Assembly: GCA_036172245.1 (NCBI GenBank) | Contig: JAYWIR010000029.1 | Coordinates: 496,001 to 560,000, forward strand | Direction: 5' to 3' | Source: Raillietiella orientalis | Lineage: Eukaryota | DNA length: 64,000 nucleotides | In this document: one piece after another, positions 3,719 to 42,700 of the stretch | Position numbering within the stretch: the first letter of the stretch is position 1 | Layout of the letters: each line of letters begins with the position of its first letter | Position numbers and translations under genes: made by a program | The notes under the pieces: model-generated | What the model was told of the DNA's origin: nothing | The model's database searches: none | The model's input: only the letters and a program-made list of their open reading frames with translations

Positions 3719-3749
<31 letters not shown>

Positions 3750-18600: not shown

Positions 18601-21600
18601 TCTTGTGTTTTTGTGCACAATAAGAAAGAAATAAGAGAAGCAGAGATAATGAGAAAAAGGCTCCACAGAAGGCTTTCGAGAATGCATGCAAGACATCAAC
18701 AGAATCGTCGAAACGGAAATACAGGAACGAAAACCAGATCAAAGAGGAAGAATCTAATTAGATGAGAGGCAACGTTGTCTTGGAATCCATAAACCTTCAC
18801 GATAAAAACTAAGGAAAGTAGTTCCAGGGTTCATAGATGCTCTTCATGAACTTGCATTCTCACTTGGTTTTATCAACTGCCTACTTTAAATAAAAACAAT
18901 TTTCTTCTCGGTTAGTAACATGTTCTTTTCAGTACGAAATTGCGATATGTGATTAAGACCGACTGCCCATAATGCTGGGATGAAAAGGGATTGCACTGAA
19001 AAGTGCTTGGATGGAAATCTTGCATAATCAGAAGAGTTGGGTTTGTTTTAGTGGTTGTGCGTCTGCAAGGACATGCCGTGTTATCAGTGTCAACTTACCT
19101 CAGAAAGTTTTCCATTGATTTCAATATGTACAAATGTGGTTGTGCTACAGGTAAGAAAAAATGCTTCCCATACTTTGTATCTACACAATCTGTTGCTCCG
19201 CTCGAACTCAATATTTTGGCAGCCACGTTAGGTAAATCCGGGTATTAGTCAGAAACTCTTATTCCTTTTGCCTTTATTTCTTTGGGCAGCGCAAGTTTCG
19301 GTTTTCGCCCATTCCAGAACAAACGTTCACTTCACCTGCACGTTTTCCTGGAAAAACGTTTTCGTAAACGACTTCGTTTGTGCTCACAACACTTTTGCTG
19401 AACATCTTGCGTTCCTCGCGTTTTTTAGCTGCAGGCCAGCTGTACGTTCTTGTGCTCCCTACAGCACAGTGCGAAATTCGCGAGCCTTTTCTCACTACAG
19501 GATACGATGCTATATGCATTTGTTATCCGTGCATTTGACCCACGAATGTTTGGCTTTCCTGTTTGCATTCCCAGCAAACAGATCCTACCCTTAAATTGTT
19601 TTAATTCGACACTTTCTTTCCCGAATCGCTTCCAATCATGTCCACCGTATTTCGAGTTTTCAACTACAAGACCATTTACACGCATCTGAACTAGCAATGA
19701 GCACTTGAGCTAGTGATGAGAGAGCGATCTGGGACTAGCAGGCTCGCCCTCATCACTCCACTTTCCGCGTTTATTCCTTGAATTCTGTGTAAAGCTCACC
19801 AGGGATTTTCTCAGGAGTCAAGAGAACGCTTGTGCCCAACAAATTTGTTTTTGACAGGCGGTGCTCCTGCTACGCTCTCTCGTTACCGAAACTTCGTCGT
19901 AAGAGTACGGCATGTTAGGATTTATGCAGTAATGCTTCGTATGCGCACACACCCAAATCCATGGTCTCTAAATAAGTCATTTCTTCTGTTTCTAGAACCT
20001 AAGCTTGATGTACCCTGTGAACAACAACTAATTAAGGACGAAAACTGTGCCTGTTCGAGAACCAAAGGAGCTGAATGTAAAGGTTGCTGTGCACCCGATG
20101 ACAGATGCGTGGAAAAAAGCTGTAATTATCGTTCTGCTGCTGCTTCATGATACATACATGAATGCAGTGGTTATAGAATAAGGCTTGAGTGGATGTGAAA
20201 GTAATCCTATAGGTGATGGTGCACTCGCACATATGCAGTGTTGAGTAAATTAATGCATTCTCATAGATGATAAGAGATCCACCCTTTAATCTTCTCCGTA
20301 CTTTTCGACTGTCTTGGGTATCATCTGCATGGTGCTGGAAGGTGTGCTTACAAACTTGGAGATTACAGTCGCGTAGAGAACGAAATGCTAGTCTTTAAGC
20401 GGCTCGGATGTCTGTCTGTAGCTTACGTGGCTAGGAAGATGCAATTTACGGAAGCTCCTTTTACGCAATTACGCGGAACTGCACTGAAGAACGTGGAATC
20501 GCGTTCTTCGGAACACCCAAAGAAAACCCTCATAATTCGATTCTGACCTCGGATTGCAAATCGCATCCATCCTTTATCCAGGAATGGGTTTCCATTTCCA
20601 ATTTCCTATAGAGATGAAAGTGGCAATCCATCACAGATGTGATTCATATTGTGCTAGAAATGCGACGATCTTAGAATATCGTTTCATGATACATCCAAGA
20701 AGGTCGGGCCATTTGCATATGATTGAAATGGCAAGCTTACTATAAATTATAGAACGCTAAATCAGTTCTTGCCATGCATCATTTGTGAGCAATCGGATCA
20801 AGTTTACTAGATCGAATCTGCATTTTTTATGAATTCAGCTACAATAAGAAATCCAGAACCTTGTGTTGTAAACATTTCAATCTTTTCTCATGCTGATGGT
20901 ATAATTCAAGTTTTGTATCATTTTAGGTCCAGAACCAGAGATTCCAGGTCAGCATTTCCAGCGTTTCCGTTCTGTTGATTTCCACGAAATAGAGAATCGC
21001 TTCCACGTGTGCGATTACGTATAATACACGAAATGCTTTCCACAAGTTGATAATAACTCTCCTTTCTATTTTTCGTAATGCTAATGAAATATTAAAATGA
21101 AATGACCGAAAAAGCTCAGTTCTCTTCTCAAGAATCCTCACGGAAGAGTAACGCAATCATGTTGATGCTGTTTCACGTTTTGCGTATTCATATCCAAGAC
21201 GTTGCCGTATCATTTCTCCGTTTCCATCCATGACGTTTCGTGAATTCTAGGATGCACAGCATCTAGGAAGGTTGCGTACAAGTGTCCATGTTCAACAGAT
21301 ATCGGGTGTATCGATGGTTTGGAATGCAGACGCGGAATATGCGGTAAATGCATTCTCAGCAACCAATCACCATCTTTCCTGATTTTTCCTTTCAATTAAA
21401 GAATATTGCGAATCCACTCCAGGAAGATACAGGTGTCCCTGCTTTGCGAATGCTACGTGTGCCTACCCATACAAGTGCATGAAAAATATCTGCAGTAAGT
21501 CGTTTAATAAGAACTTGACAAATGCCTGAAAGATTTAAATTGTCCCAGTGATAAGCGGCCTGAAGGATGCACTTGCCTGTCTGGTGACAAATGCATGAGT

Positions 21601-24600
21601 GGGATCTGCTTCCATAAACTTTGTAGTGAGTTCATCTCGTCATAATCACAGCTGGCTTATGCGATTTCGGATAAAAATGAAAGGAAACTTTCCATCGAAA
21701 GTTTAAGAAAATCCTTTTTTCTTTTTGCTTCGTTTCCCTGAAATTGCTTCACGTTCCGTGAACTATGCGTCCGTTAGCAATTTTTTCTTCATAAGACGTA
21801 GGTTTCGTAAGACGGAGGGGAGGGGGGCACCTTTTCAGCTCCTCTGCGTTTGCAGCAATTCATTCATCGTATCTGATTTCCTGATTTGTGTATTGCCTCG
21901 TTCAGATTCCTTGAGAACTTGTTTTCATGATTCACTTTCCTGAACACGCGAGAAATGTTCGGAAAACGCTACTTGCATGACTGTGAACGGCTTCGCAAGG
22001 ATCATTATTCGAAAAACCTAAAATATCTGGTATCTGTTTCTGCTACAGGCGAGTTACAACTTCTCTTTCATGCAGTAACTGAATTAACTAGCAAGCTGTT
22101 ATTCGGGACAGGCCGAAAGAGCACGAAGCAGGCATCTGTCGTGGCAAGCATCTTCATTCATCGACCGGAATTTCACAGAAATTCGTAATTACCGACCAAA
22201 ACTTTTGTTCAAGGAACCACGGTGTTCGAGAAGAAAAGTTTGCGCTACCGAAACGTAAACAGATGATTCGGAGCTTCTGGATCCGTATGGGAAAATGTCT
22301 TTTCTTCGATTTTGTAAAATATCCCAACAAACTCGAATCTTTGAGGTGTATGGCAGTGGCTGCGCAGATTCTTCTTCCCTTTGCCGCAGCAGGTTACACA
22401 TCAGGTGGTTTACGATCATAGAATCCGATTCGGTGGTTCCTTTCCCGTGAAGAGTTTCTTGGACACGAATGGGTGCTCTTTCGCCAAATATTCCTCGATA
22501 CGAACTTATCGCTCGATGCTGGGTACGCACCTTCGTGGAACGAAAAGTTTGTATCAAGGGAAATGGAAATTGTCTGTGTTCGATGAAAGGGATTGTACTC
22601 AAGCAGTAGATACATGCCAACATGTGTTGGTTCCCTATTGGAATCCAGAATCCACTTGCATGCAGCATGAGCGTTTTGCTCAGTGAGGTGGAGGTACTGA
22701 ACAGTGCTGAGGCATCTTACAAATGTTCAGGATAAAAAATGGAAAGAATGCCGCCGTAGATGTCGCTAGGAACATGAATGAAGCATTCTGGAACTGGAAT
22801 ATTTATTGTTTAATGCACCCATTGCTTTTCCCGAGATCGACTCCAGCTCTTAGAGGGGAATCGGTCATATAGATCCATGCGACTGCACGCTCTTGCCAAA
22901 ATTCTAGAATCTCAGAACGTTAGGATCGAGAAGCTTGTAGAACGGAGAGAATGGTCTTAATTTTTTCTTTTCTGTGACTCAGTTAGTTGTCCGACAACTT
23001 CCAAGCCAAGAGGCTGCCCATGTAGTTCACCAAAGGAATGTGATCAGGAATTAGCGTGTGAGGATCAAATTTGTGGTAAGATATGCCAAGCAATCGTAAA
23101 GAGGATTGTTTTTTTATGGAACCAAAATGAGTTCCATGCTTGAGGTCTATATTAGAAATGCTCTTTGATTATAGAACTGAACTGCGAAAGACTGCCCCGC
23201 TATCCTGCTTGTCCGTGCACGACAGCTGTTTGGTGCGAAAGTAAAACTTGCGTAGCAGAGAAATGTGGTAAGTGCCCTCAAAGGAGGTTTTGGACTTATT
23301 GATTAAGCTCTTCTTACTCTTCACAGACACACACACACACACACGTGCACAAAAAAAATTAACTTCAATAGACATTTCATTCAAAATGCGCAAATGTTCT
23401 TCTCTCTAATACAAGCAACAAACGACTGAATATCTGATGGTACGCTGTAAGCAAAAGGCTGATTCTCAACCGTATGTTTGGCCGAAGCAAGTTTTGTAGA
23501 TGAAAATGGAGAAAATGATTTCTATTACCCAAGAGCTCAAAAGGTAGTTTGACTGAGAATCTCAGAGACGAGTCCGTAAGCCGAGAAAAACGGCTGGAAT
23601 TTCAAGAGCTATAGTCATCCCATCGTACTGATTGTATAAATGAAAGCAACTCTTACTGATTATGGGATACATTGCATGAAAACTTTTTGTATGGATTCGG
23701 CATGTCTGAAGATATTCCGGTAGCTCTTGCCAAGATTCGTCAGTTTGTCACGAAAATTTCGAGTCTTTTCAATTTCCGATCTGTCAACCGATCTCATCTG
23801 CTTATGTTGGCGCCACTCCCATTCCGGAAAGTTTACATAGAAATGATTACATGTAGCGCATAAAAATTCATCAAGGAGACTGGATTAGAAACTCATGAGA
23901 AGTTTGTCCTTTTCATCTGCATCCGACGTGCCGATGCAGCCACAGGGGCAAATGCAAACTCTCTAAACGAGCTTGGTACCGTGACTCACATCAAGTGTCT
24001 CTTGCAAACGTGCACTAATCCGTTAGCTCATTTTCATGGAGCCTCGAGCGTTTGTGGTCGTGTCGAGCTGCTGCTAATTCGTAGACAAAGCCATGCAGGG
24101 CATTAGAAAAAGCAGTTTCACTCAACCCCCTTCCTTATTACAGCTCTTCCTATTTGATAATCAATGCAGAACTGGTGGAATTAAAGTTGCGTCATAGTGG
24201 CCGTCAACCTGCATCTCATCGAAGCACAACACTTTAGCAAACTTACATAAAGGAAAAAACTTGGCAAATGAGCGTCATAGTAAAGCTTTCATTGGTTTCC
24301 AGTGCATAATCCTCAAGATGCCTCGATACTTTGGAGGAGTTTCACTACCAGTATTGTCCTCTACGCCACATTTTTTCATGGTTTCAACGAAGCTGATTCT
24401 ATTCCTACCATTCTACAATTATCACAGTCATGAACATGTAGAAAATGTCAAGAACATCTAGAAATGATTCACAATCTCGAAATGATCTGCTGCCAAACCC
24501 TTTTTTTTTTCCTGATTCGGGGAGCACAGGGTTGTAAGTTGCGCATGTAATTTCAGATGCAGCAAAGAAATGCACAACCGATTTGGACTGCGATCCCCAT

Positions 24601-27600
24601 CATGCCTGTTTGAAGGGACACTGCGGTAAGTGTCGACACGCAGTCGGCTTGCCAGCTGCTCAGAAACTTGCATTGCTATTCCTGGGTGACGATGTTACCA
24701 CAGTGAGAGGCAACCATCAGCGTGTATCCCTTTATCAGCGTATCTTTTTGTTGTTTCATGAAATTCATCTGTATGAGTTCCTTTTATTACCAGAGGTCAT
24801 TTGCAATGCCAAACCGTTGAAACCGTCTTGTCCCTGCTGGGCTCCTGGGGACTGTGACATCAATTCGTGTTCGGCAGGAAAATGCGGTGAGTTTTCTTAT
24901 TCCTTTACTTTCGTCTTGCCATGCAAGGAAGATTTCCACCGTTTGCTTGACTGCAGTTTTTCTTTTCTTTTCTTTTTTTTACAGCTTGTCTCGATAAGTT
25001 GGTGCTTCTGAAATAAAGTTTGGTAAATGAAACTGAAGCATTAGTATTAAGAATGATACTTACTAATAGGACATTACGGTACTGACAATATCTCAATTGG
25101 AAGCATTTGCCCATTTTTTAACCGATTTTCGACTCTTAGAAGCACAAAAATTTTTCGTGACGTGACTGCGTTGAGTGTTAGCAAAGCTTTTGCATACTTC
25201 TAGTGCTTGCTCTTCATATTCCTTTAAGATCTTTGTTAACGAGCACCTGTTAATTGTTCTCCGTGTGAATCTCAGTACATTTGAGTTCCATAGCGAAACA
25301 AATCATGTGCGTTTTTTTTTTTTTTTTTTTACTTGCAACCATTTGCATTTTTAATTTGGAATGTTTAGAAAGTAAGGTCAGTGGACTGGCAGCGTATATA
25401 CGGAAATGAGGATCGGTGTTCACATGTGTTTCAGATGTCTGCATTCCTGGACGAGGGAAGACCAACTGCCCTTGTCCCTGTGCACCTCAGTATAAATGCT
25501 TTGAAGTTTCTGCAAGTACCTCCAAATGCGGTAAATAGCGTATTCCACGTGTGACCACTTAGCTTATTTTCAATACTTGGCTTCTATGTTCGCGAGTACA
25601 GTAAATTAGACTTCCCAATGTGACTTTCGTGTGTAGATGGTTTTCGTCCTTTAGTACACGATTTCATTCTCTAAATTGATTCATCAGGTGCTTGTTTGCT
25701 TTCTTTAAGAATGGAAGGAAAGAACAAAATTCATTCATTAAAGTGAAAACGAGAACAGCAGTTCGATTTCAGTTCCTCAATGTGATGGAGAATGAAGTAA
25801 ATCCATTGATAAGGCGGAACTCTTTTAAAAAGACAAACTGCGAGTGATGGCAAATCGAGTCTTTTTTGTTTCGTTGTTTCTCTCCCATTGGAACACGTGA
25901 GAAGGGAAACTGCGGTCATCAGTTGAATGTCCGCTTCTTTGAAGACCTCCATGTATTTGTGAATTTTCGAAAATCGGAATGCAATGCATCTACACGAATC
26001 CTGGAAGAGGTTTTGTCGTGTCAATTCTCTGCGAGAGTGCAGCTTTACAGTTTTGCCGAGTGGAATGGGTTTCATGCGGTGAAATTCAACTTCAACGGGG
26101 GTGAAGAAAATGGGGTGAAGAAATCGAGCATTGATGAGCCGATCCTTCTTAAGAGCGGTGCGACACTTCGGCCACGCTCCCGATTTGTGTGGAATCCCTC
26201 TCCTCCTCCGCCGCTATGCCACGGAAAGGAAATCAATAGCTCTCCATCCAAGAGAAAAGTACACTTCGATTCCAGTCGGGTCCAACACGAGAAGATGACG
26301 AATGACGCTACGAAACATTTATACGAGAGAAATATCAAATAGGCAACGCGCCCAACAAGTGGGCATCGGCGGAAATATTCAGCAACGAGTAGAGACGCTC
26401 CTGTTTTCAGAAATATGGAATTCTTGGATTATGGATTCGCTGTTTCTACAATGTTCGCATCCCTCTCAATATTGCTGTTGAAAAAGCACTTTATAAATCA
26501 AAAGTCTTTTCTGAAACAGAGGTCTGAAACTCATCAGCATTGAAAATACAGCTTCAGAGAAAGCGCAAGATTTAGGCATTTCGTGGGAGGAAACAAGCAG
26601 TGCTAACCTAACGATTATTGAAGAATTAGAGAAAAAGTCCGTGGAGCAAACTGGGAGATAGCAACGAATAACTAATTGTCTTTAATTATCAAGAACCCTT
26701 TGAATTCAGGCAAAAGCAGCAAAAGTTCACAGTGCTGAAATACAAACATGGGAAGAAATTGAAACTCTTTTGCTTTAATATTAACAGGCAAAACCGAACT
26801 CCAAACAGCACTGATCGGAAAGAAATTGCTTTCGTTGATACGCAAAATGAGTAAGAGAAATCTGCGTGTGCCCACTTGGCTGCATTTCTTGCAACGTTTC
26901 TCCGAAATCCAGCAGCGAAATAATATCAAAATAGTGCTCCTTCCACGAAACCCAACCACCGAGCCTATCCATCCCAAAAGAGGAGACTAAAAGAGGCAAA
27001 TGGTGAAGGAATTCTGCATAAAAAATACTGCACTTTTATGAAGAAAGATCAAATCAAACGGTTTCCAGAGTGCTTCAAAAACGAGGTCTGGCATTTGAGC
27101 TTAATGAACCAAAAGGAGGTGAAAGGAATCAGTGTAATCGGAATACCATTGTGGATTTTCAGATCTCTTCTTGGACTTTATCCTTGTTAATGGAGTTCCA
27201 ACTACGATGTCTGAAAAGCTCCTTCAGAGTTTTTTTCGCAGAAAGTCATGTACTGCAGAAGTAGAAAACCGATGGTCGAGACTGAGGATCTGACTCAAAA
27301 GGAAGAATTCGATTTCCGACACAATACCGAAAGTTTCAGCATTCCCAGAAAGGATGAATTTTTCGAATGATCTTCCAGGAGAGTGGAGGCAAGCGATGTT
27401 CTCTTTTAGACAAAGATGTTAAATTGAAGTCTATTTTTCGAGAAGCACCGTGATGAAAGAAGGAAAAGGAGGGAAGACTAAGCCGAATAGGATCACTTGG
27501 GATAGAGTTGCAGAAACCAAGTCAGCGATCACAATGACGAGAAATGGTGACTGCACAAAACGAACTGTTGCATTCGATTCGATACTTGTTTGCAATTTTT

Positions 27601-30600
27601 CGTAATTTCTTTTTCGCGTAAACAACTTCAAGCTTTTGCTACTGGAAATGGGCGCACATTCTCCATTTTCCCCAAATACTGATTTTTGAAAAGAAGACGT
27701 AACGAAGTTTGAAGAATTCAGCTACTCTGGCTTTCCGCGTTCGAGGAGCGCCGCGGGCACATTGCGACCACAAATGCGACCGGAAGAAATCCAAGTTGCA
27801 TGCATCCGTTCGAATCGATTTGCAAGTCGCTGTTGGAATATGCAATCGTTTCATCCCAGGATCTAAAAATTAACAACACTTGAGATTCGCGGCAACGGCT
27901 TCGACGATAAAGGCACACACGCGTGACGGTGCAGTGAGAGAGTCACCTTTCATCCATGTGAAAGACAGGTGAAACTATAAAGATAGAAACGCGATCAGCA
28001 TGGGGGAAGAAGATTTTTTCTTTCGTCCGAAGTTTTGCAGTCACATGTGCAGAAGACGATTTTCGAGTTGGATGCTCCAGTTGAGGATGGCGACGAGTTC
28101 CGATTCTCACGATCTTCGAAACTCCCTTGTATTTCTTTTTGCTTCTCGAGTCTCTCTGCAAGCTATCCTGAAGTAATCTGAACGCCATTTTCGTGGAAAT
28201 CCTTCAGCCACTACTGCGCGCGGAGAGCCCTGAGAAGCGACAATTCTTCCGTGATTCACATCTGTGGCTTGTGTGTTTTAGTTCCTGATTGCAGCCAAAC
28301 CATCAAACCTGTTGGTTGCAGCTGCCAATCCAACGAGGAATGCGACAGTTTAACCTGTGAAAGCGGACTGTGCCGTAAGTACACCATGATGGCGAAGCAT
28401 ACGTTTACTATACGTTTCCGACGTATTTTTCCACACGAGATAAACGTACGCAGTATGCGTGTTCTCTTTTCGAATGATCTCTTTGAATGAAATGAGTTGG
28501 GCACAAAAAACAAGATTCCCGTTGCGAGAGATGCCTCCGTAGGTCTACTGAAACCTGAAAGTGCACATGTGATCCTATTGACGATCCTATGGAACAGTGG
28601 CAAAGGAAGGACCCATTTGCCGCTTGCACATCATTGAGCTCATCCCTTGCTTTCCGTGTTATTTGATTTCCTACGCTCAAAACTTGAAAGCAGGAGTTTC
28701 TGTGACGTGTTGGTGCATTCGCAATAGCGAAGAATGCCTCAAACGTCCGCGATGGGAAAAGTTGATTTTTTCTTCCCGTTTTCCTTTGTTCGCATTCCTC
28801 GAAATATCCTCAGACAAAAGCATTTCGAAAAATCTGATTCGGAAACGACTGCATGAAAATGTCACGAACTATTTTTTTTTCCAGAGACTTGTAGCCGGTT
28901 TTTAGGTGTCGAAGGTTGCCCTTGTTTGTCCAACATGGATTGTGCAAGACATCTCGCATGTTCTTCAGGATTTTGTGGTTAGTCGAAACAGTAACCTATA
29001 TTGCAATAACGTGTCCATACTGCTTCTTTTCAACATGGGTGCTTTGGAGTGTAAATTCAATTCAAAAGTAGAGTAACTAGACTCCTGTTACTTCCAATGC
29101 ATTATCTATAGTCGTTTGAATGGAAAGAATAGAAAAAGTCTCCCCAAAAGGAAACCAAAACACAATTTTCTAATCTTAGAAACTCGGCCGCAGTGCGAAA
29201 AATCGTCGGCGTCGGTGTACTGCCCCTGCAATGGAAAAAAATGCGTCTCGGGATTGGAATGCAAGGAAAAATTATGCAGTAAGTACGGACTTTCAAGGAA
29301 GGCATTCGAGACAACGCAAACGCCGACACGAGCGTAGCACCACTTTCGATTACACTTGTTTCCAATCAATTGGAAACTGTGATCCATCACTTAGCAACTC
29401 GCTCTTTGCACTCTCGATCCGGGGGAAAGTATTGGAAAGTCATTTTTAGAGCTGCATGGGTCACATGCTCGGAATTGAGATCGGGAGCAGCGGAGTATGG
29501 ATCTGAGAAGGAATGCACTTCAGGGACAAACATCCTTACAAAAGAGAAACAACATTTATGGTTTTGGTGCTGTAGATTAAACGGTCACTTTCATGTATGC
29601 GATTCGGTAAAAGATACTGCATTCGCTGATACATCGAGAAGGAAGTGTTACATCATTCCATAAGCAAATAGAAAATTGAAAATATAGAGGGGCAACCCGT
29701 TCGTCCCGAAGATGCTATGATTTCATTGCTGCACCTCTTATGAGGAGAGGGATGCTTTTCTCGGACCAAAAGTTCAAGGAGCAGTGTAAATGCCGCTGAA
29801 TGAAAGGAAAATTTCTGTCAAACAAAAGCTACCGGTTCATTTCTGTTGAATATGCAGTGGAAAGAAACAGAACCGACACGGATCTTCTCTCGGGTTCGCT
29901 TCCCTAGCCTTGAATCTGCGGGAGAAATGCACAAAGAATGGATTCCTTGTTTCGTGGGGTCCTTTGGAGGTTCAGTGTCCTGGAAAATTTTCAGTTATCA
30001 AAGAATGGAAATCGATCTTCGAAACGGAACGCAAGAATCCTGTGTTTGAACAGACCATGGATTCCTATCATAGCAGACGCCTTTCCTCTTCTTTAAACTT
30101 TGGCAACTTGCAGAGATTCACAGAATTTCCTTGCTGTCTCCTTATCTAATTGTTTTTTTTGCTCCATTGCTTGCAAGTTTCTCGTCTATTGGAAGCAAGA
30201 TGTCATTTTTTACACATTTTCGGATTCTTCGGAGGAGGAGGACGTCAAGAAGCAAGGCAATCTGAAATCATTCAAGGATCCTTGCAGCTTCAAAGCTCAA
30301 TCTATAGGTAGAAAGTAAACCCATTAATTTTTCTGCTTCTGTTGCAATTTCTGTTTTAAGTAAATCGGTTGCTGACTTCTTTTCCGGAAGTTGTGCACAT
30401 TCGATTGCGGTCAGGATAAACCAATTGCACTAAATGCTGGAATTTTTCGGCCACCGAAACAAGAAACTCTTGCTAAATCGCAAAACATCCGGAGCCTCTT
30501 CCGAAACGTAGCCTACGGAGAGTTTGCGGGCGTTCCTGTTTTTTCGAAGTTTTGGAATGTGGAAACTTTGTTTTTGAATGCGAGTCCACCATTAGTTTCA

Positions 30601-33600
30601 GAGCAAACTGGTGATGTACTCTCCTGAAAGTGGAGGAAGGTGCATTTGCACAGCTGCTGCAAATGAAACAGCAAGACCGCTGAAAGTGCTTAGTTGGGTT
30701 GCTTTCATACAATCCTCAACAAAGGAAGAGAATGATTCATGCTTGCCATGCTCTAACAGTTCGTTCAATGGTGTTGATCGCATGAGGCAAACGATGTGTA
30801 AAAACTGGATGACGATGGATGCTTATAGAGCCACCCTCATTCTGGAGGAAACGTTCGCGCCCAGTCTTGGAAAATCTTTCGACTCCCACATTGCAAAATT
30901 TTCTTCCTGAAGTTTAGTTCCTGTATCATGATTTGGGAATTTGAAGTGAAATACCAAGGACGTTAAAGGAAATGTGCTCTTGATCGTTTTTGTATGCACG
31001 CTGAATCCAGCTGCAACCTCGTACCTTTTCAAATCATACAAATTATTCAAGTGCGACCAATGTGTAACAAAAGCCTGTATTCGTTTTCAGTGTATCTGGA
31101 AGAAAAATGCCCCTCCCTCCCATGGCATTATGCGCCCTCTTGTCCCTGCTCGTCTCCCAAAGATTGCTCGTCTCACATGTGCAAGGGTGGAAAATGCAGT
31201 GAGCTCAAAAGTCTTCCTACTTGTTGCCATCTCTTGAAAAATTTATTAATGTGATCAAGAATTTCACAGAATCCCGAAGCGATTTTCAGTTTCTTTTCTC
31301 GAACTGTCTTCTTCTTCCATGCAAAAGTGCGAATCTCGTGAAGCAAAATAAAGTTCGAGAGGAACCGAAGAAATCCTTGTCATTTCAGCCACTTGTTCTG
31401 GAAGAGGTCGAGACGTCAACTGTGACTGCTTCCTGCCTGGAGATTGCAGACACCCATTCACCTGTGATTCGAATACGCATGTCTGCGGTATGCTCTCATC
31501 TTTTTTTCTGGGTGGCATTCCCCCCCCCCCCCTTTTCGTATTCCATTCCAGTGAGTAATCTTGCTCCAAAAACAATGATACATACAGACAGAACTCACAA
31601 TGAAACGGATTCCATGCATTCCAGGATGGGAACAAAATAACTCATAATGTTTGGGCTTGATTTCCAAAAAAAAAAAAAAAATTCGTTTATGTTTTCTTTG
31701 CTCTGTCGAATGAGCTTCGACCACAGAAACAGTTACATTGCTAGATGTCATGTGCTTTTTTCTAGTTCCAGATTGTGATTCATCACTGAAATCCCCGGGA
31801 TGTAGCTGCTCCTCGAATGCTGATTGCCGAAATGGGGAATGCAAGAGAAACATATGCGGTCAGTATTAATAAATTTTGGAGTTGAAAGCAAAGAAGCATT
31901 TACTTTCTGTAGCGAAATAAAAGTTTCCTTTGAACCCGAGGAGAAGAAGCTGTTCTTTTCTCGAACTGCTTCATTCGTATTGAACACTCCTGCACGCTAA
32001 CCCTAAATTCTCGGCGAGAACACGCGCGATTGAATTCTTTTGAGTGTAACTGCGTTTATCAGTTCCGACGTAACCACAGCAACTTTATGAACATTACGGA
32101 AAAGGAACGCTAAAAGGAAGTTGCTTGCTGAAACGAAAAACTGGTGACATCTTCGCCTTTGGAATTGTCTGCGTAGAACCTTCCTGGTCCGCTCCTGGCT
32201 TCGTATTCTCGGGTCTTTGTTGAAGGACTCCTTGGACGCTTCGAGATGAAGGCGCAGAATGCTATGCTTTTCGAAGTTTGCCTCCGATATCTGTTTATAA
32301 CAAGAGCGTGATAATCAAATGCCTTTGGGAGCAGCCCAAATGCTCGCTGGAAGATTTGCTGTACATCGTACTATGAAGCGCGCTTGTTCGAAGGGCACCG
32401 CAGGGAGTTACCATGTGATGGTTGCGTTGTCTCCTTTCCGGGAGTTTAGGTTGGCCTGCAGATCGGTTGACCGCTGCCAAGGAACCAGCGTTTCGGTTAA
32501 GCATTTAGGCATGCCGATTTGGTTTTCAGTGGTCTTGTTTGAAAAAATTCGTTCACAGGCTGCTCTAATGGGTCATGAGCAAACTGGAGACATGATCACA
32601 GATCATGATCATCTCATAGCCACGCTAGGGGACTAGCTTTCTTGTATCTTTGGCTGTGTAGATAAGGTGGTTGGATTACAATCAAAAAGCTGGTGTACTC
32701 TGATGCCTGCTTTGTTGCGTACAAAACTTACTAATAATGATTCGCAATTGCAGCATTTGTGTCGCTGTATTTCTTCGTGGCACAGGGAGGGTTGCTGATT
32801 TCTTTCTTTCTTTTCGATTTGAAAGAAAGAAAGCGGAAAATGGGCTGTGTTTAAGATTGTTCTTCCTTGGGATGCAAGAGAAAATTCTAGCCTTCTGCTC
32901 CATGAAGACCCACTGCTCCGCTCATGGTGCTTCGAGCGCGCATCTCCCTCTATCCCCTTTCTCAGAACTCACATCACGTATTATATGTTACGTATTTGTA
33001 AGTTTCTCTCACGAATTCATGAAAGAGTCAGGTAATGATCCAATACTGAGGTAGATGTTAGACAAAGACGGGCTCATTTTGAATAAGAAAACGCAATTTC
33101 AGCTTGGTGCACAAAAAAAGGAAAATACAGAGGATGCACTTGCAGTTTAACCTCCGAATGCGGCGGACTACTCGTGTGCATAGCCAATGTTTGCGGTAAG
33201 GTTTCCGATTCTGTCTGCCAAATTGTATTGACGGCAGAAGAATCCTTATTTCGGTGTGTGTGTTTGTGTGTTTCACTGATTCTTGAACATAAGGTAACCG
33301 TTTCACTGAAAGCAGTCAAGGTACGAGTGTAGAGCAGTGTTAATGTCGTTATGATGCCAAAATCGAAAGCATTGATAAGCCATTCCATGAACTGCTGTGT
33401 CTTAGTTCCAGATTGCTCGAAAACGCCGCTTATATCTCTCTGCAGATGCAAATCACCCGCAGATTGCGCAAGTGGAGTGTGCCACAGTGGACTCTGCGGT
33501 GAGTAGCAACCGACTTCTTCACCGTAAAAAAGTCTTCGATCTCGACAACCTGCATAAAGCACGTGAGGAACAACATGGCCTCAGCATGATCGATGATCCT

Positions 33601-33717
33601 ATCGAAAGGATCGAGCTTGAAAGTTTCAGAGGAGAGACTGGGTGGACGGTATGCCTGAAATGAACTGTATTACCAGCTGCTCAAACTGACGTTCTTACGT
33701 TGAGGTGGACGAAATAC

Positions 33718-33777
<60 letters not shown>

Positions 33778-36700
33778 TACCAGAAAAATTTTGCTCAGAT
33801 AAAAAGTTTTGAGATTTCCACCAATTGGCTTAAAATTAGATAGCTATGGCGCTTTGTTCTCCAAGCTTTCAAAACAGACCCAATGAATCGCACGAATGTG
33901 ACGCACTTTTCGAAAGAAGATTTTAGTAAATGCGATAATAAATAAGGCTTTTTAAGAGACTTAAATGCAGAAATTGGAAATTCGTCTCGAAAAGGGGAGA
34001 TCGTCTCACAAAATCCCGCATAGCAAGCACACTCTCGACTGAATGTGGAAAAGCAGTTGCTTTCCAGGAGTTTCTAGGTAGACGCGAAACATTGAATATC
34101 AATGCTTTTAAGCGAAAAAGACATTTGTTGGCAAACTTGATGAAAGATGCAAAGTATCGGAAATTATTTTTTCAATGGATGTATCTTTTTGATGTACTTG
34201 CCAGCTCCCTGCTCGAAAGAGATAGGAGAAACGAACTGCGCATGTGCTGCTCCTGATGATTGTCAGGGAAGATGTGATGCAATAACAGCAACTTGCAGTA
34301 AGGATCTTGTTTTCAAAATTTGAATAATGCTGCGTCCCTCCCCATGTGCATTAAAAATGACTCCTTGACCGTTAGCGAGGTGCTACAAATGAACCTGCAG
34401 GTTCCTACGGGAAGTACTGTGCGAATCCTTTGAGTGATTGTGACAGAGTCACCCGGATCGCTTGAACAGTTTGCAAAATTCTTCCTTTCCATTTCACATT
34501 CTTTACTCTTCTCGTTTCCGATGAGTTTGTTGAAACCCTTCAGAACAACTGTCAGGCAGAATACGGATCCATGAAAGTTTTACACAGCATGCTCTGTTCT
34601 TTCCAGTTAACTACTGCACCACCGGAAAGCATTTGCAAAAAGGAGGGTCTTGTCCTACAGGTCATTCCTGTGTTAGGACAAGTACGAAAGGAATATGCGG
34701 TAAGCGTTCTTTGGTTACAGACTCCCAGATCAATTCGTTCTTTGCAATCAGACTGTAGGCTTGGCTAATAGACACTTAAATCAGAATCGGGCGAGAAAGG
34801 ATCCTTGTTTGCTTCTTATCGCTGTAATGGTTCATCTTTCTGCAGATTTATAGTTTGCCTGCAACTGCTTACTTGCAGGTATAGATTTGCGTGATTTCGG
34901 GCAAGTTGGGTATACGTAGGTGGCCGTCATGCAGCAGCACGAACTAATGGTTTTTCATGTCATTTCATACAACCTGTTTCTGCCTCAGTCCATCACACCA
35001 TGTTCATGTTTCTGAGCATCACCTTTTTTCTTCTTCTTCTTCTTCTTCTTCTTCTGGAGGGGGGGGGGGGGGAATCAATTACGATGAGCTCATGTTTCGA
35101 AGCTGAGTTGGAATTTTTTTTTGGCTTCCCGTGCTTTCTAATTTGTCGAATATGCATTACAACTTCTGAAATGACGCGATTTTTCGTTTTCAACTTTTCC
35201 ATAATTCCTGTCTTCCTGCGACTACATTCGAGCCAAGTCGTTCGTTATTGTTTTCCATTTGATTGTACTGATCCTTCTTTTGCAAGTTCCCTCTGCTGCG
35301 TGCAAGTCGACGAAAAGCACATGCCTCTGTCCTCATCCCAAGTGGTGCAGCGTGGGCTGCTCTTGTGGTACTCCGCATGCTGATCAGACGCATTCAATAA
35401 ACGAGTCTCCCATCTAGCGAAGTGTGCGTATCCAGCGCCGAAATACTGTCCGTGTTCGGTTCCTTCAAACTGTCTGGGGAAACTGATCTGCAGATACTAC
35501 GACGACTTCAGCGGGGTTTGCGGCAAGTATCCATCCATCAGAGAGAAAGAACTGAATAGTTGATGAATTGCATTGTGAAGACGATGCATGTACAAGTACC
35601 GTGTCATTCCCGTACTGCCCTTGCAAGTCCAGTTTCCAGTGTGCAAGCGGAACGTGTATCCAGGAAACTTGTGGTAGGAGGGCATCTTTCGATTCATTCG
35701 TGGAGGTTTTCTCTCTCTCTCTCTCTCTCTTTCACTTGATTGATGATATCACTTTTACCATTTGTCATGCGAATGAGAAAGAGGAAACTTTTTGTAGACA
35801 TTTGCCGCGGAGGAAATCGCAAGGAATACTGCCAATGCGAAAAGCATGAAGACTGCGAGAAATCCTTGAGATGTGTAGAGGGAATATGTAGTGAGTAATG
35901 ATGTTTTCTACATCCAAGTCTTCGATCTTCCACCAAGTGATCGTCGGAAATTCAATTCTGTTGAGATTTTTTTTTTTTGCCTTCGGGTGCGATGAGTCTC
36001 ATCAAGATCATGAGCCTACGCTCATGCACTGATCCCAATTCCACATGCCAGGAATTCTCTTGCTCAGTGCGAATCTTAGCAAGCACGAAACTATGGGGTC
36101 GATTTTTTTGGTCATGCAGTCGAGTAGTAACGAACAAAACTGTGTGTCTGCCTCTCATAACTCTGATTTGGAGTATTCAAACATCCGTTAACGACAAATG
36201 TGGAAATGTAAACTTGAGAGCAAGTATTTTACCAGCATCCGCTTAACCCACTCGGGCTTGTCTTCCGCACTCCTACCTTGCCAGAGCTTCTGAGTGTGAA
36301 GCCACTGGCAATATGATATTCTAGGTCGCCTGATATGCCCACCAAATCCTCCATTTCCTCCGGAGTGTGACTGCATTGAACATTCGCAATGTGCTTGTGG
36401 AGTATGCTACAAAGCGAAATGTGGTAAGTGGCTAGAATTTTCGAGAACACTGCCTTCTCCGGCCAATCGTTTACCGCAACTTTGTCATCAAGTCTTCTGG
36501 TCTTGAACTTTTTAAATCTCACTCGGATTCCCCGTCAAGAAGCACAAACAAGTGCTTACTGCTTTCATGGTCATGAGGAAAACTAGTAATAACCCGATCG
36601 CAATGCTGTTAGATGCTGTCGCGATGCAAACGCGCTTCATGTTTACGTGTTGGGCATTCTAACGAGCAGCACTCCCAAGGGGAAATACGTGTACGAAATT

Positions 36701-39700
36701 TGGAATACACAGTAGTTTCCTCTCTTCACTTTTTGATGAAATGATCTCGCTGACAGTTACAGCTTCCGATAAGTGTGGCAAGGAACAGTGCAATTGCAAG
36801 GAGGATGCTGACTGCCGCGGAGAAAGCATCTGCAGCAGATGTTACTGCCGTAAGTTTTCAAATGCTGCTCTCCCTGGTTCTTCATGTGAGATTCAGGAAA
36901 ATGCCAATACGCTTTCGCCCCTGGATGCCCTTGTAGCAACTCTCGTCAGTGTGAAGGGGTATGCAACCTAAGCGAGCTGAAGTGCACCCCAGGTAGAGAA
37001 AAATTGCACATTTTGTATTTCATTCACTTTCAACGAAGATGAGAAACGATCTCCTGCAGCGAGTGCACCGACTGAACGGTTTGTCGTTTGCAAAGGCCTT
37101 GCCTTCTTAATCCATGGATTCGAAACGTGACAAATGAGAGATTCGCGCGCTTGCCGTAGTAACTTTGAGGACCTGAAGCGCGCGCGCGTTTCCCTCTCAA
37201 ATCCCCGAGTCATCTGCCTTTCAGACACGCTCTGCAAATTCATCGGAGCTCCGGGATGCCCTTGCAGCAATAAGGAGCAGCCATGTCGACATGAATGCGT
37301 GACTTTCAAAAGTTTCAGCTTCTGCGGTAAGGGGCTGTTTGCATTCAGAATCCTTCTTTCCATTCTGACTGTGATCAGTCTGGAAGCATCGCGAGCACTT
37401 TCCAATGGCAACCAGTTTCGCTTCCCGTTTCTTCCGCATGTTGCGACGAAATGACGCAGACACCAATCTCAAACTCTTCTGTCCGTAGGAAACTGCAAGA
37501 AACCACCTTTCAGCCCCTACTGTCCATGCAGCAAGCCCGATTCTTGCAAGAGTTTGCAGTGCGTGGACAAATTCTGCTCTCCGGATGACAGTCAGTACGC
37601 CGATTCGGAACTTCCCGATTCATACTGGCTTCCTTTTCCATGCCAGGCGCGTGTGCAGCGATGGCAGCGAAACCGCCCACGTGTAGGTGTGCACATCCCA
37701 GTCACTGCCTGAGGTCACTGTGCCTCAACAAGACATGCGGTATGAAAAGTTGCTTCCTCGTGATCAGTTCTTTTCAGAAAATGTGCGTGTTCAGCCTTTG
37801 AGGAAGCATGCTCGCGTGGAGACACTGAGGGATGCCCCTGCGACAGCTCGAAAGCTTGCGGAAAGAAGGATTGCCTTGCGGTTTTCGACGACCTCAAGAA
37901 ATGCACTGGTACTGAATGGGTCTTGCTGTTTCCTCGGAGACTGTTGTTGTGTTCAGTGTGTCCCCGAGGCGGTGGTTGTCCTTGTAATCCCGAGTGCACG
38001 GTTTGCATAATCCATCCAAGAGGATACATTTGCGATGGAGGTTGGGCTCAACTTGGTGCATTCCATGCTTTGAATTTGTGTTTCCTCATTCCTGCTGCTT
38101 CGGCTGGAAACTCGAAATCCTATCCTGTTTAGGAATTTGCCAGCAGCACGTGAGACCTCCCGGATGTCCCTGCACGAATCACGAGGAGTGCGAGGAAAAG
38201 TTCTGTAGCGGGAAAGCATGCGGTAGGATTCGCTTTCACGAGCTGTGGAAGATGGGCGAACTCTTTAGGCTGTTCGCCACCTTACCCGGATGGGTGCACG
38301 TGCTCCTCTCCGGAAGAATGCTTCAACATTTGCGAAAGAAATGCGAAAACAGGGTTCCTTAGTTGCGGCGGTGCAGGTACGTGGTCGATATGCTGCGGGC
38401 TGCCAAAAATCTTTGGGAGTGTGATTCTGCGCGATTTCCCGCAAAGGGAGTAGTAACTCAACTCACCTTGTATCGTAGCCAAGTGTTCGGGAAGAAAAGT
38501 GGACGGGTGCTCTTGCGTGTCGGATAGGCAGTGCATTTCCAATTCCTGTGTGAAACCTGAGCCAACATCGGCGTTCGGAACATGCTGTGAGTTGTTCAAC
38601 TGGGTCTGCGTTGCAGTTAAGACCATGGCAGCCCGTGAAAGACTCGAAAACATTTCCTCGTCAAAACGAATCCGCCCTGTGCTGTTTCCGTTTTCAGCAG
38701 CGCTGCTCCTCCTTCTTTCACCAAGCCTTCATGGAGATGTCCCCTCTGAAACTGCTCTGATTCGATTTCGATTCCTCAGTTTTTCCTTCTAAATTCCAAG
38801 CATCGCGGTTTCCCATGTAACAGGTTGATTCCGTTCCCTGCAGCTGGCCGGTGTCGCAGATTCCTTGTTACTTCACCATACGTGGGGAGCGAATGATCTA
38901 ATGATTAAGCGATAGTGGCTGATTAACCCAAATGCGATGTTGCAGATCCACAGTGCAATGTGCCCCTCAAATCGCCCTTCTGCGCATGCAACTCCCCAAA
39001 AGACTGCAATCATAACGTATGCGGCAGACAGCAGGGTAAAAAAGTATGCGGTACGCACTTTTCATTCTTTACCACTTTTGCAAACACAGAACAGTCGCTC
39101 GGCTCAAGCGGTGCACATTCCTTTCTTTTCATTCCAGTGAATTGTGTTGCTGCCCCCCGACTTCCTGGCTGTCCGTGTACTTCCAATGCGCACTGCAAAC
39201 ACCATTGCAGGAGGCGCCGGTGCACAGGTATCGTGAGGGCTCCCGCACTCTTTTCTTCCCCCTCTTCCTATTTCTGATATTCATCCTTTTGGGCGACCTC
39301 TGTTAGTGTGGGAAAAAAGCTTTTAACTCTGGAAGAGAAGTTGCTGTATGTATTCGAGCCACTTCCCCATTGCCCTGCATCCCCCCTGCCCCCCTCAAAA
39401 AACAAAAAAAATTAAAAAAAAAAACATGTACACCGCGCTTGCTTCCGCATTTTTCTTCCCGACTTTAAGAGTTCAAGTAAACAACGTTCTTTGATAGCTC
39501 ATTCCAGACTCCGGCTGTTCCAAACAAAGGTGGCGGCCGAGCGGTTGTCCTTGCAGAACATCGGATGAGTGCTTCTCCGGGAAATGCGTTCCGAGTGAGT
39601 CGGCAAAAGGCTTGAGTTGTGCAGGTAGGATGATGACGCTCATTCATTCGTTGTACCGAGCACCGCTTCACCGCCGAAGAGAGGGGGAAAAAATGCTCCA

Positions 39701-42700
39701 CCTCTCCCTCGAACTTGATCTTTCAAAGGAAAGTCCATGATTTCGTGATTTGACCTTTCAGAGTATTGCCTCGCAATTGGGAAGTCTTTGTCCGGATTCC
39801 TAGCAGAAGGATGCCCGTGTTCAACAGACATTCAGTGCCTGAGATGGATGAAGTGTAACAGAATTACAGGAACTTGCGGTAGGATTGGGAGGACCAACAA
39901 CAAATCAGTTTAGATAAGACGAAGTGAAAAAATTTTTACAGAGTGGTTCTTTCCCGCTTCTCTTTTCTACAAATGAAGGAGCCCTTGCCCTCCTCGAAGA
40001 AAGACGGGAAAACTGTAATACGGAATAGTGCTTGCGATTCGAAGTTGAAATCGAAATCATCATAGATTATCGTCATTTTTACTGCTCCTACTTGCCTTTG
40101 TTTGGTGTAATTATTACTAAGCTCGTAAATTGAAAACCAGATTGTGGTTCCTCCGGCTGGTCATTCGTTATGTTTGGATCAAGCATTCGCCTTACTCGGA
40201 TTTTTCCCGAATGATGACTTCATTTCGTATCTGGGAGAAGACATCCCTTCCCTGGAGACCATGTTTGACAGCTAATAATAATATGCAGCGATCCTCATTC
40301 TACACAAAACAGTTCAACCGACTATGAAAAGCCGCACGTGGGGCAATGCAGGTCGCGCTTTCTGTTTTACCAGCTGATTTGCAGCTGATCTGATGACGCA
40401 TTCGGTCTGTCTCAAGCCACGGGGGTGTCCCGTTCGCAGGAAGTCTTCCGCAAAATCAGATGAACAGTTCGTTCTGTGGCCTCTTGCAACTTTTGTACGA
40501 TCGGTCATTGCAGTGCTGCTTGTACACTTTCCAGTCGATAGTTTCATGAGTTTCCAAGATACCGTAGCAGGCTGTAGAAGGAACCATTAGTGGTAGCGGA
40601 GTACACCAAATGTGCAATCTAGGTCTTCAGATTTGTTCTGTGATCATCTGTCTTGACCGGGCTCATACGATGATGGTGTTTGGATGGGATGTTCGCCCGA
40701 ATTCGAATTTTGGATTCAACTGGAAATTTTGGGCTGCCGTTCCAATAACTTGGGAGAAGGGGCAAGGCAGAAGTTTCACAAATCCATTCGGGTGCTCAAA
40801 AGTTGGCTCAGAACTGTGTCTGCAGGAGCAGAATAGACCGACCATAGCCGTGATCACTTTGGACTGAAATAAATGGATATTTTTTCCCAGAAAAGTATTT
40901 CCGCAGGAACCGCCTATATTCTATCAATGTGTTGTTTCGCTTTCCCAGACGCCTTCGTTTTTGTTTTTTGTTTTTTTCCTTTTTTGAGTGCTCTTTCTCT
41001 TCGTCCATATCCACATTGAAATCCTATCCTGGTCGCACTGTGAGGACTCACTTTTCGACTCGCCGCCTTGACAAACAAAAATGTCTCTTCGAAAAATGAG
41101 TCCCATTCGTTGCGTTTAGGATGACTGTACGAATAATGATTTGCGGAAAATGAGATTACAGGGAGTGAAATGACTCGGAACAAAGGCATCGAAATGCTAA
41201 CGCCTGGAAGATTCAATGGTGCCGATAATTTGACACCGGAATTAATTTAACGGTAGAGAAAGCTTCTCGTTCTTCGGAACGAGGGAGTGAACGATTAAAG
41301 TCTTATGCTTCCTTACGGAAACCGTACGGATTTTCCTTACCAACCAGTCATCAATAACCACCAAGTGGGAGCAGTGGCAAGGAGGTATTCAGAAGCGAGT
41401 ATGCAATGTCGATTTTGTAACTTACTGTAATTTAGAGGAGTGAAAAAGGTTCTCGTGCTAAAAAGTGGTAAGAACAAGAATGGAAGGGAATGCCGAAAGT
41501 TGCTCTAAACATCTAACTTGCTGTCTAAACAAGACGATATCTTGAGAATTTCCCTATGTATGGAATTTTCCATCTTTTCATGAGGAAGATTCCAAGGAAT
41601 CAATTGTAATAAAGAATCATTTTCAGAGGACTGCACTGTTATTCCGAAACCTACTGGATGTCCTTGTGACGAGGACGGGGATTGTTTTCATCACTGCATC
41701 AAAGGACTATGCAATCCCAGTAAGTATGTTCAGAATGCTGCCTGCTGGACCGCAATTAAAGGGAAAGTCTTCAAAGCTTTGCTTGTAGACTCGAAAGAAG
41801 GAAAATCAGTTTTCAAATTTCCCTTTATCGATCGCCGTCAACAACTTTCCAAAATGAGAGTAGTCTGTTCCTATCCGATATGAAAGTCTAAAGGCGTCTG
41901 AAAGGAAAAAAAAATATGAAAAATTCGCATTTTCCTTAAAAATTTCTCATAAAGATGCAAAGCAGCTCTTGCAAATTGAAATTTTCGAACAGCTGAAGAG
42001 GTGTGATTGAAATACAACGCGATTGATGCATCATCGCGTTAACGTAAAATTTGTGGCCGCCGATGCCTTACGTTTCATTGGCTCGAACTCAGGTTTTCCT
42101 GAGAGCAGTTGGCATTGATTGGCAATCATTTCCAGGAAGCAGGAATTTTTGCACTATTTGATTTGTTGCTTACGGAAATCAGGTTTATGCTTGGGGTCAC
42201 ATCGCCCCGACGGGTGCACCTGCGCGACGGACGATCAGTGCGCAAGCCGTTCCTGTTTGTTGGTGTTTGCGACAGGCTTCAGGAAGTGCGGTAATGATCG
42301 CTTCTGTAGCTGGTGTTTGCCTCAAAAGAGGAGATCCTGGAGTATCGAACGGTACTTGTTCCAGTGCAGTGTCATCGACCACCTTATCCCGACGGCTGTG
42401 GATGTAACAGAACGTCAGAGTGCCAACGTTACTGCCTCAAGGACGAAAGTACAGGATTCCTTGTATGCAGTAAGTACCATTGTGGCAGAACAAAGTGTCC
42501 TCGTTCGCATCCACAAAACTGCACACAGAAGGAAACCTGGAGGCCATTTGACTATAGAGTTCTCGAGAATGAACAGCTGGAAAGTTTGACCCAGCTTGCA
42601 AATGGAAACTCTTTCCAGATTCCTTTTGAGGAAAGTGCGAGCCCATGCAAGAACCGCGGATCTCAAGTCGTTTTGAGAAAAGTAAAACTACCAGTGTGCC

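Follow-up and report, generated by a model that had tools for sequence, protein, structure and literature searches.

Many small disulfide-rich repeats, of either the EGF type or the NIM type, make up surface receptors and giant matrix proteins such as Eater/Nimrod, Draper/MEGF10/SREC, Dumpy, Notch and fibrillin. A different arrangement is found in Dscam, where the alternative exons are equal-length paralogues of one half-domain and are accompanied by docking and selector RNA pairing. A locus that recalls both systems in part lies within a 64,000-nucleotide (nt) stretch of DNA from Raillietiella orientalis (contig JAYWIR010000029.1 of GenBank assembly GCA_036172245.1, positions 496,001 to 560,000 of the forward strand; here called the window, and numbered from its first letter), and is, on a reading of that DNA, an unannotated protein-coding gene for a predicted single-pass membrane protein with an ectodomain shaped as a string of small cysteine-rich beads. 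Like the repeat-built receptors and matrix proteins, the predicted product combines small disulfide-rich repeats with a transmembrane helix and a short tail; unlike them, it carries an EGF repeat only as its last unit, and no sequence relationship to the EGF-repeat and NIM-repeat proteins was found. The use of one exon per repeat across 41 repeats is likewise unusually regular when set against those receptors. Dscam offers a parallel in its long array of small exons within the gene of a surface protein, where a choice among exons can be neutral to the reading frame, but the exons of the window gene vary in length, each encodes a full domain, and no elements common to their introns were found.

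The product would be a type I single-pass protein. Its ectodomain would hold 41 or more autonomous modules, each some 30 residues long and closed by three disulfides, with a single EGF domain after them, and a transmembrane helix would lead into what is probably a short cytoplasmic tail. All of the exons would normally be spliced in, and the resulting protein of about 1400 residues would form a long, rigid and multivalent surface rod that might act in adhesion or in the binding of ligands or particles, by analogy with other repeat-built surface proteins. We consider this combination of bead-string membrane architecture and constitutive splicing to be reasonably probable; a specific role in adhesion or binding is put forward with much less confidence.

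Organization of the cysteine-module array

A motif and profile scan, combined with a reading of splice sites, placed 41 cysteine-module exons on the forward strand between positions 19996 and 42469. A preliminary description of the window had counted 40 such exons, and its numbers proved essentially right: the sizes that it gave (69-126 nt, in multiples of 3, with phase-1 introns on both sides) were recovered for all 41, and 93 nt, which it had assigned to 16 exons, is indeed the commonest of 13 distinct lengths, although at 14 of 41 (or 15, if exon 2 takes an alternative acceptor at 21251). Addition of an EGF-like exon (42754-42861) and a transmembrane exon (43043-43138) gives a full model of 43 exons, all of them multiples of 3 in length and all separated by phase-1 introns, and splicing of these exons in order yields 1393 codons with no stop and with 250 cysteines, or 18% of the protein. 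Six cysteines are present in 35 of the 41 cysteine exons. As had also been described for most exons, the coding sequence tends to end on or just after the last cysteine: cysteine is the last complete codon in 32 of 41 exons, and is found within the final four codons in 38. The stretch from the last cysteine of one module to the first of the next accordingly spans 1-6 residues in 38 of the 40 linkers, and 1-3 in most.

Class 1-1 modules, as defined in PMC8001218, are domains whose borders lie at phase-1 introns and whose exons are 3n in length, and according to that source the extracellular proteins of metazoans are usually built from such symmetric modules. The same article and PMC7502776 treat the combination of one domain per exon with phase-1 introns as diagnostic of exon shuffling and duplication in those proteins, and its presence here makes a metazoan source likely. 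Borders at phase-1 introns and lengths of 3n are found for every one of the 41 cysteine exons, as well as for the EGF-like and transmembrane exons.

The array is confined to one strand. A regular expression for the six-cysteine spacing, applied to all six frames of the window, matched 25 times on the forward strand and not once on the reverse strand. Twenty-nine modules (alignment A1) were then made into a profile, which was run against stop-to-stop frames of at least 15 amino acids (aa) on both strands. Scores above 12 bits came from 35 places, every one of them on the forward strand and within 21250-42441, and the best reverse-strand score was 8.8 bits. Since 29 of those 35 places had trained the profile, the independent evidence consists of the six additional places, the strand asymmetry, and the open frame of 1393 codons.

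The splice sites of the model are of good consensus along its whole length, with those of exon 20 somewhat weaker. Donors begin with GT in 42 of 43 cases, the single GC donor being at 35523 (intron 35523-35580); they are close to GTAAGT, with G at position +5 in 34 of 43, and pyrimidines make up 0.65 of the sequence that leads into the acceptors, compared with 0.50 in the background. The GC content is 0.51 in the exons and 0.42 in the introns. Eight of the 42 introns are shorter than 60 nt (38-58 nt), the shortest being that at 21495-21532, and seven exceed 1 kb; two introns of 28 and 17 nt in the automatic model were replaced by the use of neighbouring in-phase acceptors.

The module itself is about 30 residues long, with the consensus C-x8-C-x-C-x5-C-x4/5-C-x4-C. 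An alignment of 38 modules (A2) bore out that consensus, which the preliminary description had already given together with a frequent GCPC motif: C1, C2 and C3 are invariant, and C4 to C6 are present in 90% or more of the modules. C2 has glycine before it in 19 of 38 modules and proline after it in 21, and the residue ahead of C4 is acidic or a glutamine. The strong divergence that had been described outside this scaffold was equally evident. Mean pairwise identity among modules is 32%, and drops to 13% when columns of aligned cysteines are removed; identity outside the cysteines is flat with distance along the array (0.14 at a distance of one module, and 0.14 at a distance of ten), and the closest matches are between widely separated modules. 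No tandem repeat was found in the array at the DNA level. Because identity is so low, adjacent modules show no greater likeness than remote ones, and no DNA repeat was found, the array would appear to be either the product of an old tandem exon duplication or one whose members have been driven apart; neutral saturation and diversifying selection could each account for the divergence. Its growth would most likely have proceeded by tandem exon duplication through recombination within introns, with later divergence leaving only the cysteine scaffold and a few glycine, proline and acidic positions.

Relatives and predicted fold of the module

Searches for relatives were in keeping with the earlier statement that the module cannot be placed in a named family, its likeness to EB repeats being loose. 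None of 29 modules scanned against Pfam reached the cutoff of any family. EB (PF01683) matched one of the 29 (14.2 bits, E 0.047, cutoff 24.3) and gave nothing at E<=1 for the other 28; besides EB there were isolated sub-threshold matches to toxin families. DUF7107 and Dickkopf_N matched none of the 29 modules. The four-cysteine exon 7 (24559-24624) gave sub-threshold matches to DUF7107 (PF23416; 18.9 bits, cutoff 24.6) and Dickkopf_N (PF04706; 16.5 bits, cutoff 25), and a weak match to Dumpy_DPY, also below cutoff. A sequence search of the PDB with the module profile returned nothing below E 0.037.

HMMER, run exhaustively over 1.84 billion representative proteins, returned 18 at E<=0.001, among which (at E<=0.01 for the family matches) EB was found in nine, DUF7107 in eight and Dickkopf_N in three. 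Many of the distant matches cover only profile positions 13-30, and those are the proteins that carry EB, DUF7107 or Dickkopf_N: it is the C-terminal half of the module, C-x5-C-x4-C-x4-C, that matches them, whereas none of the three families describes the N-terminal C-x8-C-x-C part that the window module has. As eight and three of the 18 matches carry DUF7107 and Dickkopf_N respectively, a remote relation of the module to those two families is suggested. The full six-cysteine form was found in only six other proteins, one from a barnacle, one from a bacterial metagenome-assembled genome and four unnamed ones from metagenomes. The C-terminal four-cysteine half would appear to belong to a widespread hairpin-type repeat, of which the six-cysteine form may be a rare and unnamed extension.

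The best match to the profile, and the only comparable array among the 18, is the barnacle protein XP_043214807.1 of Amphibalanus amphitrite (annotated as 'neurogenic locus notch homolog protein 1-like isoform X1'), which was matched in 47 stretches at E 3.6e-35. A pattern search found the six-cysteine spacing in it 24 times and, like the window array, it matches no Pfam family; unlike the window array, it consists of near-identical recent copies arranged in a two-module super-repeat, and no EGF domain or transmembrane segment was seen in it. When its residues 1-400 were used as a query against proteins 1015-3231 residues long, only the protein itself was recovered. The second-best match, the bacterial FecR domain-containing protein MEW6202761.1, contains the full six-cysteine pattern ten times, and the metagenome proteins P0009, P0012, P0015 and P0017 contain it five, two, two and three times. 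These five proteins have Pro-Tyr/Phe-Pro-Asp-Gly before C2, as do the exons at 38269-38376 and 42365-42469. Their contexts differ from that of the window gene, in that their modules are few, are not carried on exons, and stand beside FecR, bacterial Ig, TSP3-like or collagen sequences. The likeness between bacterial and eukaryotic modules may reflect common descent, transfer or convergence.

The 30-residue module of exon 11 was modelled by AlphaFold2 with the 38-module alignment, at a mean pLDDT of 84.7. All nine rows returned by Foldseek for this model were knottin peptides or Dickkopf, at E>=3.1, and nine of 11 rows of a VIA structure search were knottin-type peptides by title, at Z<=3.2. 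The best superposition was on the spider toxin of PDB entry 5t4r (root-mean-square deviation, rmsd, of 0.8 A over 26 of 30 residues, Z 3.6), and that on a second spider toxin, 5fzv, gave an rmsd of 1.9 A over 27 residues (Z 3.2); the knottin superpositions as a whole ranged over 0.8-1.9 A and 24-27 residues, with E>=3.1 and Z<=3.6. Neighbours found with a language model were also knottin toxin families, at scores of 0.85 or less that serve as leads only. These separate comparisons agree with one another, although for a domain of 30 residues none of them can reach significance.

A true knottin has disulfides 1-4, 2-5 and 3-6, one of which threads a ring formed by the other two. Such a knot is doubtful in the window module, which lacks the adjacent cysteine pair that knottins have at the aligned position; in the PDB sequence alignment, profile positions 13-30 pair with the last four cysteines of a spider knottin, and the doubled cysteine of the toxin is left unmatched. 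Because that alignment pairs the last four cysteines, and because exon 7 keeps only C3 to C6, we infer a core in which C3-C6 would form a two-disulfide beta-hairpin (3-5, 4-6), as in EB, DUF7107, Dickkopf and the knottins, with C1 and C2 closing an additional N-terminal loop. Knottins also differ in scale, being single secreted peptides or pairs, as against the 41-module membrane protein predicted here.

Individual exons and the ends of the gene

The exons described in this section all lie on the forward strand, and their scores in bits are those of the module profile. Exon 1 (19996-20121; 126 nt) has seven cysteines at a variant spacing and a strong acceptor, ttctgtttctag; its last cysteine is probably used as C1 by the module that follows. 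Exon 2 (21260-21343; 84 nt, five cysteines, 30.9 bits) could begin instead at 21251, which would bring it to 93 nt, but that acceptor was rejected after exon 1, where the join of 20121 to 21251 creates a TGA and acceptor 21260 gives a sense codon. A run of four 93-nt exons follows: exon 3 (21402-21494; 35.5 bits), exon 4 (21533-21625; 35.2 bits), which is preceded by the 38-nt intron, exon 5 (22983-23075; 32.4 bits) and exon 6 (23175-23267; 33.9 bits). Exon 7 (24557-24625; 69 nt) is the half module with four cysteines, in which only C3-C6 are kept. It is followed by exon 8 (24794-24886; 93 nt, 33.1 bits), by exon 9 (25435-25530; 96 nt, 20.5 bits), which is a CPCPC variant, by exon 10 (28282-28374; 93 nt, 35.9 bits), and by exon 11 (28885-28977; 93 nt, 40.6 bits), the module used for structure prediction.

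The array continues with exon 12 (29180-29278; 99 nt, 20.2 bits), exon 13 (31091-31198; 108 nt, 31.5 bits), exon 14 (31389-31487; 99 nt, 26.9 bits), exon 15 (31772-31858; 87 nt, 33.5 bits), exon 16 (33103-33195; 93 nt, 18.4 bits), exon 17 (33412-33498; 87 nt, 31.8 bits) and exon 18 (34205-34297; 93 nt, 22.8 bits). Exon 19 (34607-34699; 93 nt) is a four-cysteine variant that gave no match to the module profile and a weak one, below cutoff, to Lustrin_cystein. Exon 20 (35287-35367; 81 nt), a compact six-cysteine variant, is less certain, and its splice sites (a caag acceptor and a GTACTC donor) are those noted above as weaker. The sole GC-AG intron comes after exon 21 (35418-35522; 105 nt, 12.9 bits), and is followed by exon 22 (35581-35673; 93 nt, 15.9 bits) and exon 23 (35798-35890; 93 nt, 34.0 bits). 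Seven cysteines are found in each of two adjoining exons, 24 (36325-36423; 99 nt, 26.6 bits) and 25 (36763-36849; 87 nt, 15.6 bits).

Next in order, exon 26 (36897-36992; 96 nt, 13.8 bits), exon 27 (37225-37326; 102 nt, 26.9 bits), exon 28 (37489-37590; 102 nt, 33.5 bits) and exon 29 (37647-37739; 93 nt, 25.8 bits) lead to exon 30 (37807-37908; 102 nt), which was not matched by the 29-module profile but aligns in A2, and whose acceptor was set by hand, giving an intron of 67 nt and not 28. Exon 31 (37957-38055; 99 nt) has variant spacing. Exon 32 (38133-38222; 90 nt, 32.3 bits) precedes exon 33 (38269-38376; 108 nt, 29.3 bits), of the PYPDGC type and with a long last loop, and next come exon 34 (38479-38586; 108 nt, 22.2 bits), exon 35 (38946-39050; 105 nt, 14.4 bits) and exon 36 (39138-39227; 90 nt, 30.5 bits). 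The donor of exon 37 (39508-39624; 117 nt, 27.5 bits) was preferred at 39624 over 39594, as this keeps the sixth cysteine. The array closes with exon 38 (39762-39878; 117 nt, 31.3 bits), exon 39 (41627-41719; 93 nt, 35.5 bits), exon 40 (42183-42290; 108 nt, 21.2 bits) and exon 41 (42365-42469; 105 nt, 12.1 bits), which is again of the PYPDGC type. Outside the gene model, a partial module at 23902-23958 (12.1 bits), within a 1289-nt intron, keeps the C1-C4 spacing but contains no later cysteine; its splice sites are poor, and this is likely to be an exon that has decayed.

Downstream of the array, the EGF-like exon at 42754-42861 (108 nt, phase 1-1) matched PF00008 at 27.1 bits (cutoff 21.5, E 4.9e-06, profile positions 5-31 of 32), in agreement with the EGF exon that had been named at 42754. 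The exon at 43043-43138 (96 nt, phase 1-1; acceptor ttttctttcctttccag, donor GTTTGT) has, as read by eye, an unbroken run of about 24 hydrophobic residues with Pro-Lys at its end, and would encode a putative transmembrane helix. A candidate last exon at 43754-43816, one of five acceptor candidates downstream of the transmembrane exon, would add a tail of about 20 residues, rich in serine and acidic residues, with a Tyr-x-x-hydrophobic motif and a stop. At the other end, the candidate first exon is 15688-15787, which has an ATG, a signal-peptide-like hydrophobic stretch and a phase-1 donor (CAG/GTAGAT), and is the only upstream ATG open reading frame (ORF) judged to combine a charged start, a hydrophobic core and small residues ahead of the end with a phase-1 end. 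If it is real, the ectodomain would consist of almost nothing but the array.

A CUB exon that had been proposed at 19052 could not be upheld: ORFs 19052-19228 and 19000-19245 have no Pfam match even at E<=10. Pfam scans of 133 forward-strand ORFs, of 140 ORFs on both strands downstream, and of 111 mostly reverse-strand ORFs (positions 1-43000) gave only sub-threshold matches to zf-C2H2, at 15950-16126, and to RVT_1, at 63562-63927 on the forward strand (23.6 bits, cutoff 29.6), the latter probably a decayed retroelement. Protein searches with 63562-63927 and with ORF 12031-12348 among longer proteins gave no match, an ESM Atlas query with ORF 9199-9630 returned nothing, and an Rfam scan of the whole window returned nothing. 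Two further forward-strand frames lie upstream of the array. The one at 19232-19300 resembles a signal peptide (a core rich in leucine and phenylalanine, and small residues), has no ATG and begins just after a stop, and is probably a coincidence; the other, at 15446-15637, contains a Tyr-Tyr-Cys stretch that recalls the end of an immunoglobulin-type domain, and its best Pfam match was to the unrelated TSP1 model at E 1.4.

The composition of the window is uneven. GC content runs at 0.35-0.44 over roughly the first 36 kb and at 0.49-0.57 thereafter, with single low bins at 40-42 kb (0.42) and 46-48 kb (0.37); CpG is not depleted across the window (observed/expected 0.81-1.01), and TpA is (0.46-0.63). 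The undepleted CpG, together with introns shorter than 60 nt, is taken to rule out a genome of the vertebrate type. A microsatellite of (ATAC)n/(AT)n lies within an array intron at 33706-33781. A C/T-rich low-complexity block of about 2.3 kb occupies 46400-48700 on the forward strand, and within it many degenerate tandem repeats, with periods of 10-254 nt, overlap one another; the bin 46001-48000 has a GC skew of -0.55 and an AT skew of -0.68.

Proposed constitutive use of the array and competing readings

The preliminary description had left two readings side by side, a constitutive stalk of about 1300 aa and a combinatorial splicing library. The first fits the open frame, the splice sites, the linkers and the presence of an EGF domain and a transmembrane segment; the second has gained no positive support. 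Constitutive use of the exons, taken by itself, is fairly probable. Four exons have an odd number of cysteines, and they form two adjacent pairs, at 19996 and 21260 (seven and five) and at 36325 and 36763 (seven and seven), a layout with a chance probability of 0.007; such pairing suggests disulfides between neighbouring modules, and thus the joint inclusion of their exons. The acceptor at 21260 gives the sole productive join from exon 1, where exon 1 provides the first cysteine of the next module.

Several points weigh against a constitutively spliced membrane rod. Its 5' end and signal peptide depend on one predicted candidate exon, and a scan of positions 1-19990 for phase 1-1 exons with good splice sites gave just two unconvincing candidates. 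The exon borders at 21260, 35287-35367, 37807 and 39624 were set by hand, and the 38-nt intron, together with the others below 60 nt, is plausible only in organisms with short introns. The fold matches are statistically weak, as is expected for 30 residues. The pattern of splicing and expression are predictions from genomic DNA, and function is argued from analogy. Finally, when every exon of an earlier exon list was joined to every later one, 846 of 861 joins gave a sense codon and 15 a stop; with the phase 1-1 symmetry of the exons, this makes some alternative splicing quite possible.

The foremost alternative is that the gene encodes a structural extracellular or coat protein, of a matrix, cuticle, eggshell or cement-like kind, whose membrane anchor is transient or cleaved and whose beads give mechanical or protease resistance. 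The cysteine content and tight packing of the beads would suit such a protein, as would the failure of Pfam and exon scans to find a distinct ligand-binding head domain upstream, and the only comparable array, that of the barnacle, is a protein of repeats with no other domain. The barnacle repeats, however, are near-identical copies, unlike the modules of the window; nothing ties either protein to a matrix; and the transmembrane exon and the membrane-proximal EGF domain argue for a membrane protein. A structural role is regarded as unlikely.

A library of exons, from which skipping or mutually exclusive choice would generate many isoforms of a recognition receptor (for immunity, allorecognition or gamete binding), much as Dscam does, would draw on the fact that all of the exons are of phase 1-1, such that any subset remains in frame with few stops at the joins, on the 35 six-cysteine exons that could fold alone, and on the very different surfaces of modules that share 13% identity outside the cysteines. 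Very short introns can hinder the joint use of neighbouring exons in some systems, and several introns of the array are 38-58 nt long. Several points weigh against such a library. Equal-length alternatives for one part of a domain, which are typical of Dscam, are absent from the array: its exons have 13 lengths between 69 and 126 nt and each holds a whole domain, and are not alternatives for one slot. Nor was a conserved docking site with selector complementarity found in the introns. No k-mer was shared among them beyond the level of shuffled sequence (the commonest 10-mer occurs in three of 41 introns, against a maximum of four in 20 shuffles), and no k-mer complement occurs in more than two, in a scan that short degenerate elements could escape; repeats of at least 25 nt were not found in the introns, and inverted repeats of that size were limited to the microsatellite and poly-T/A tracts. 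The splice sites are uniformly good, the adjacent odd-cysteine pairs imply co-inclusion, and high divergence with no effect of neighbourhood is what any old repeat array would display. Symmetric 1-1 exons are, moreover, normal for extracellular modules in the account given in PMC8001218. Such a library is judged to be quite improbable.

Slightly less credible again is a germline diversity device, in which the 41 knottin-like exons, autonomous in structure and divergent in surface, would be used in variable combinations, or would vary in number between individuals, and would yield a repertoire of multivalent rods for the recognition of non-self, mates or symbionts. If true, it would represent a Dscam-like solution reached from an unnamed domain family that also occurs in bacteria.

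The array could also be dead or never expressed, either as a pseudogene or as a mirage produced by cysteine-rich open frames. It has no annotated protein match, its 5' end was not found in the upstream scan, and one decayed module lies in an intron; yet a stop-free frame of 1393 codons, spread over 43 exons with 250 cysteines at conserved positions, could not persist without selection, and usable splice sites are present at every exon, which makes this reading very improbable.

Hardly credible at all is a polyprotein precursor cut into knottin-like peptides (toxins, antimicrobial peptides or inhibitors), for which the predicted fold and the language-model neighbours might speak, as might the tandem disulfide-rich secreted repeats known as a class from PMC6262176, but against which stand a dibasic pair in only three of 40 linkers, most of them of 1-3 residues with no room for processing sites, a transmembrane segment and EGF domain that come after the array, and adjacent odd-cysteine modules that suggest disulfides between modules. 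That class, the secreted cysteine-rich repeat proteins (SCREPs), is defined in the same source as secreted proteins of 20-500 aa with at least two tandem disulfide-rich domains, from a pipeline that drops products above 500 aa such as transmembrane receptors; the window product, at about 1400 aa and with a transmembrane segment, falls outside it.

The layout of a constitutively spliced membrane rod appears to follow the known rule for extracellular modular proteins, and on present evidence calls for no new mechanism; it would take combinatorial or polymorphic use of the exons, seen in transcripts or in populations, to make it of high interest. Its 43 consecutive phase 1-1 exons nonetheless provide a clean case in which to study how exons duplicate in tandem, how short an intron can be and still be spliced, and how much change a disulfide scaffold tolerates. 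Genes of this kind are invisible to standard ORF-based or prokaryote-style gene calling, and similar ones are probably under-counted. The module itself would represent an unnamed domain family, with 18 detectable relatives among 1.84 billion representative proteins.

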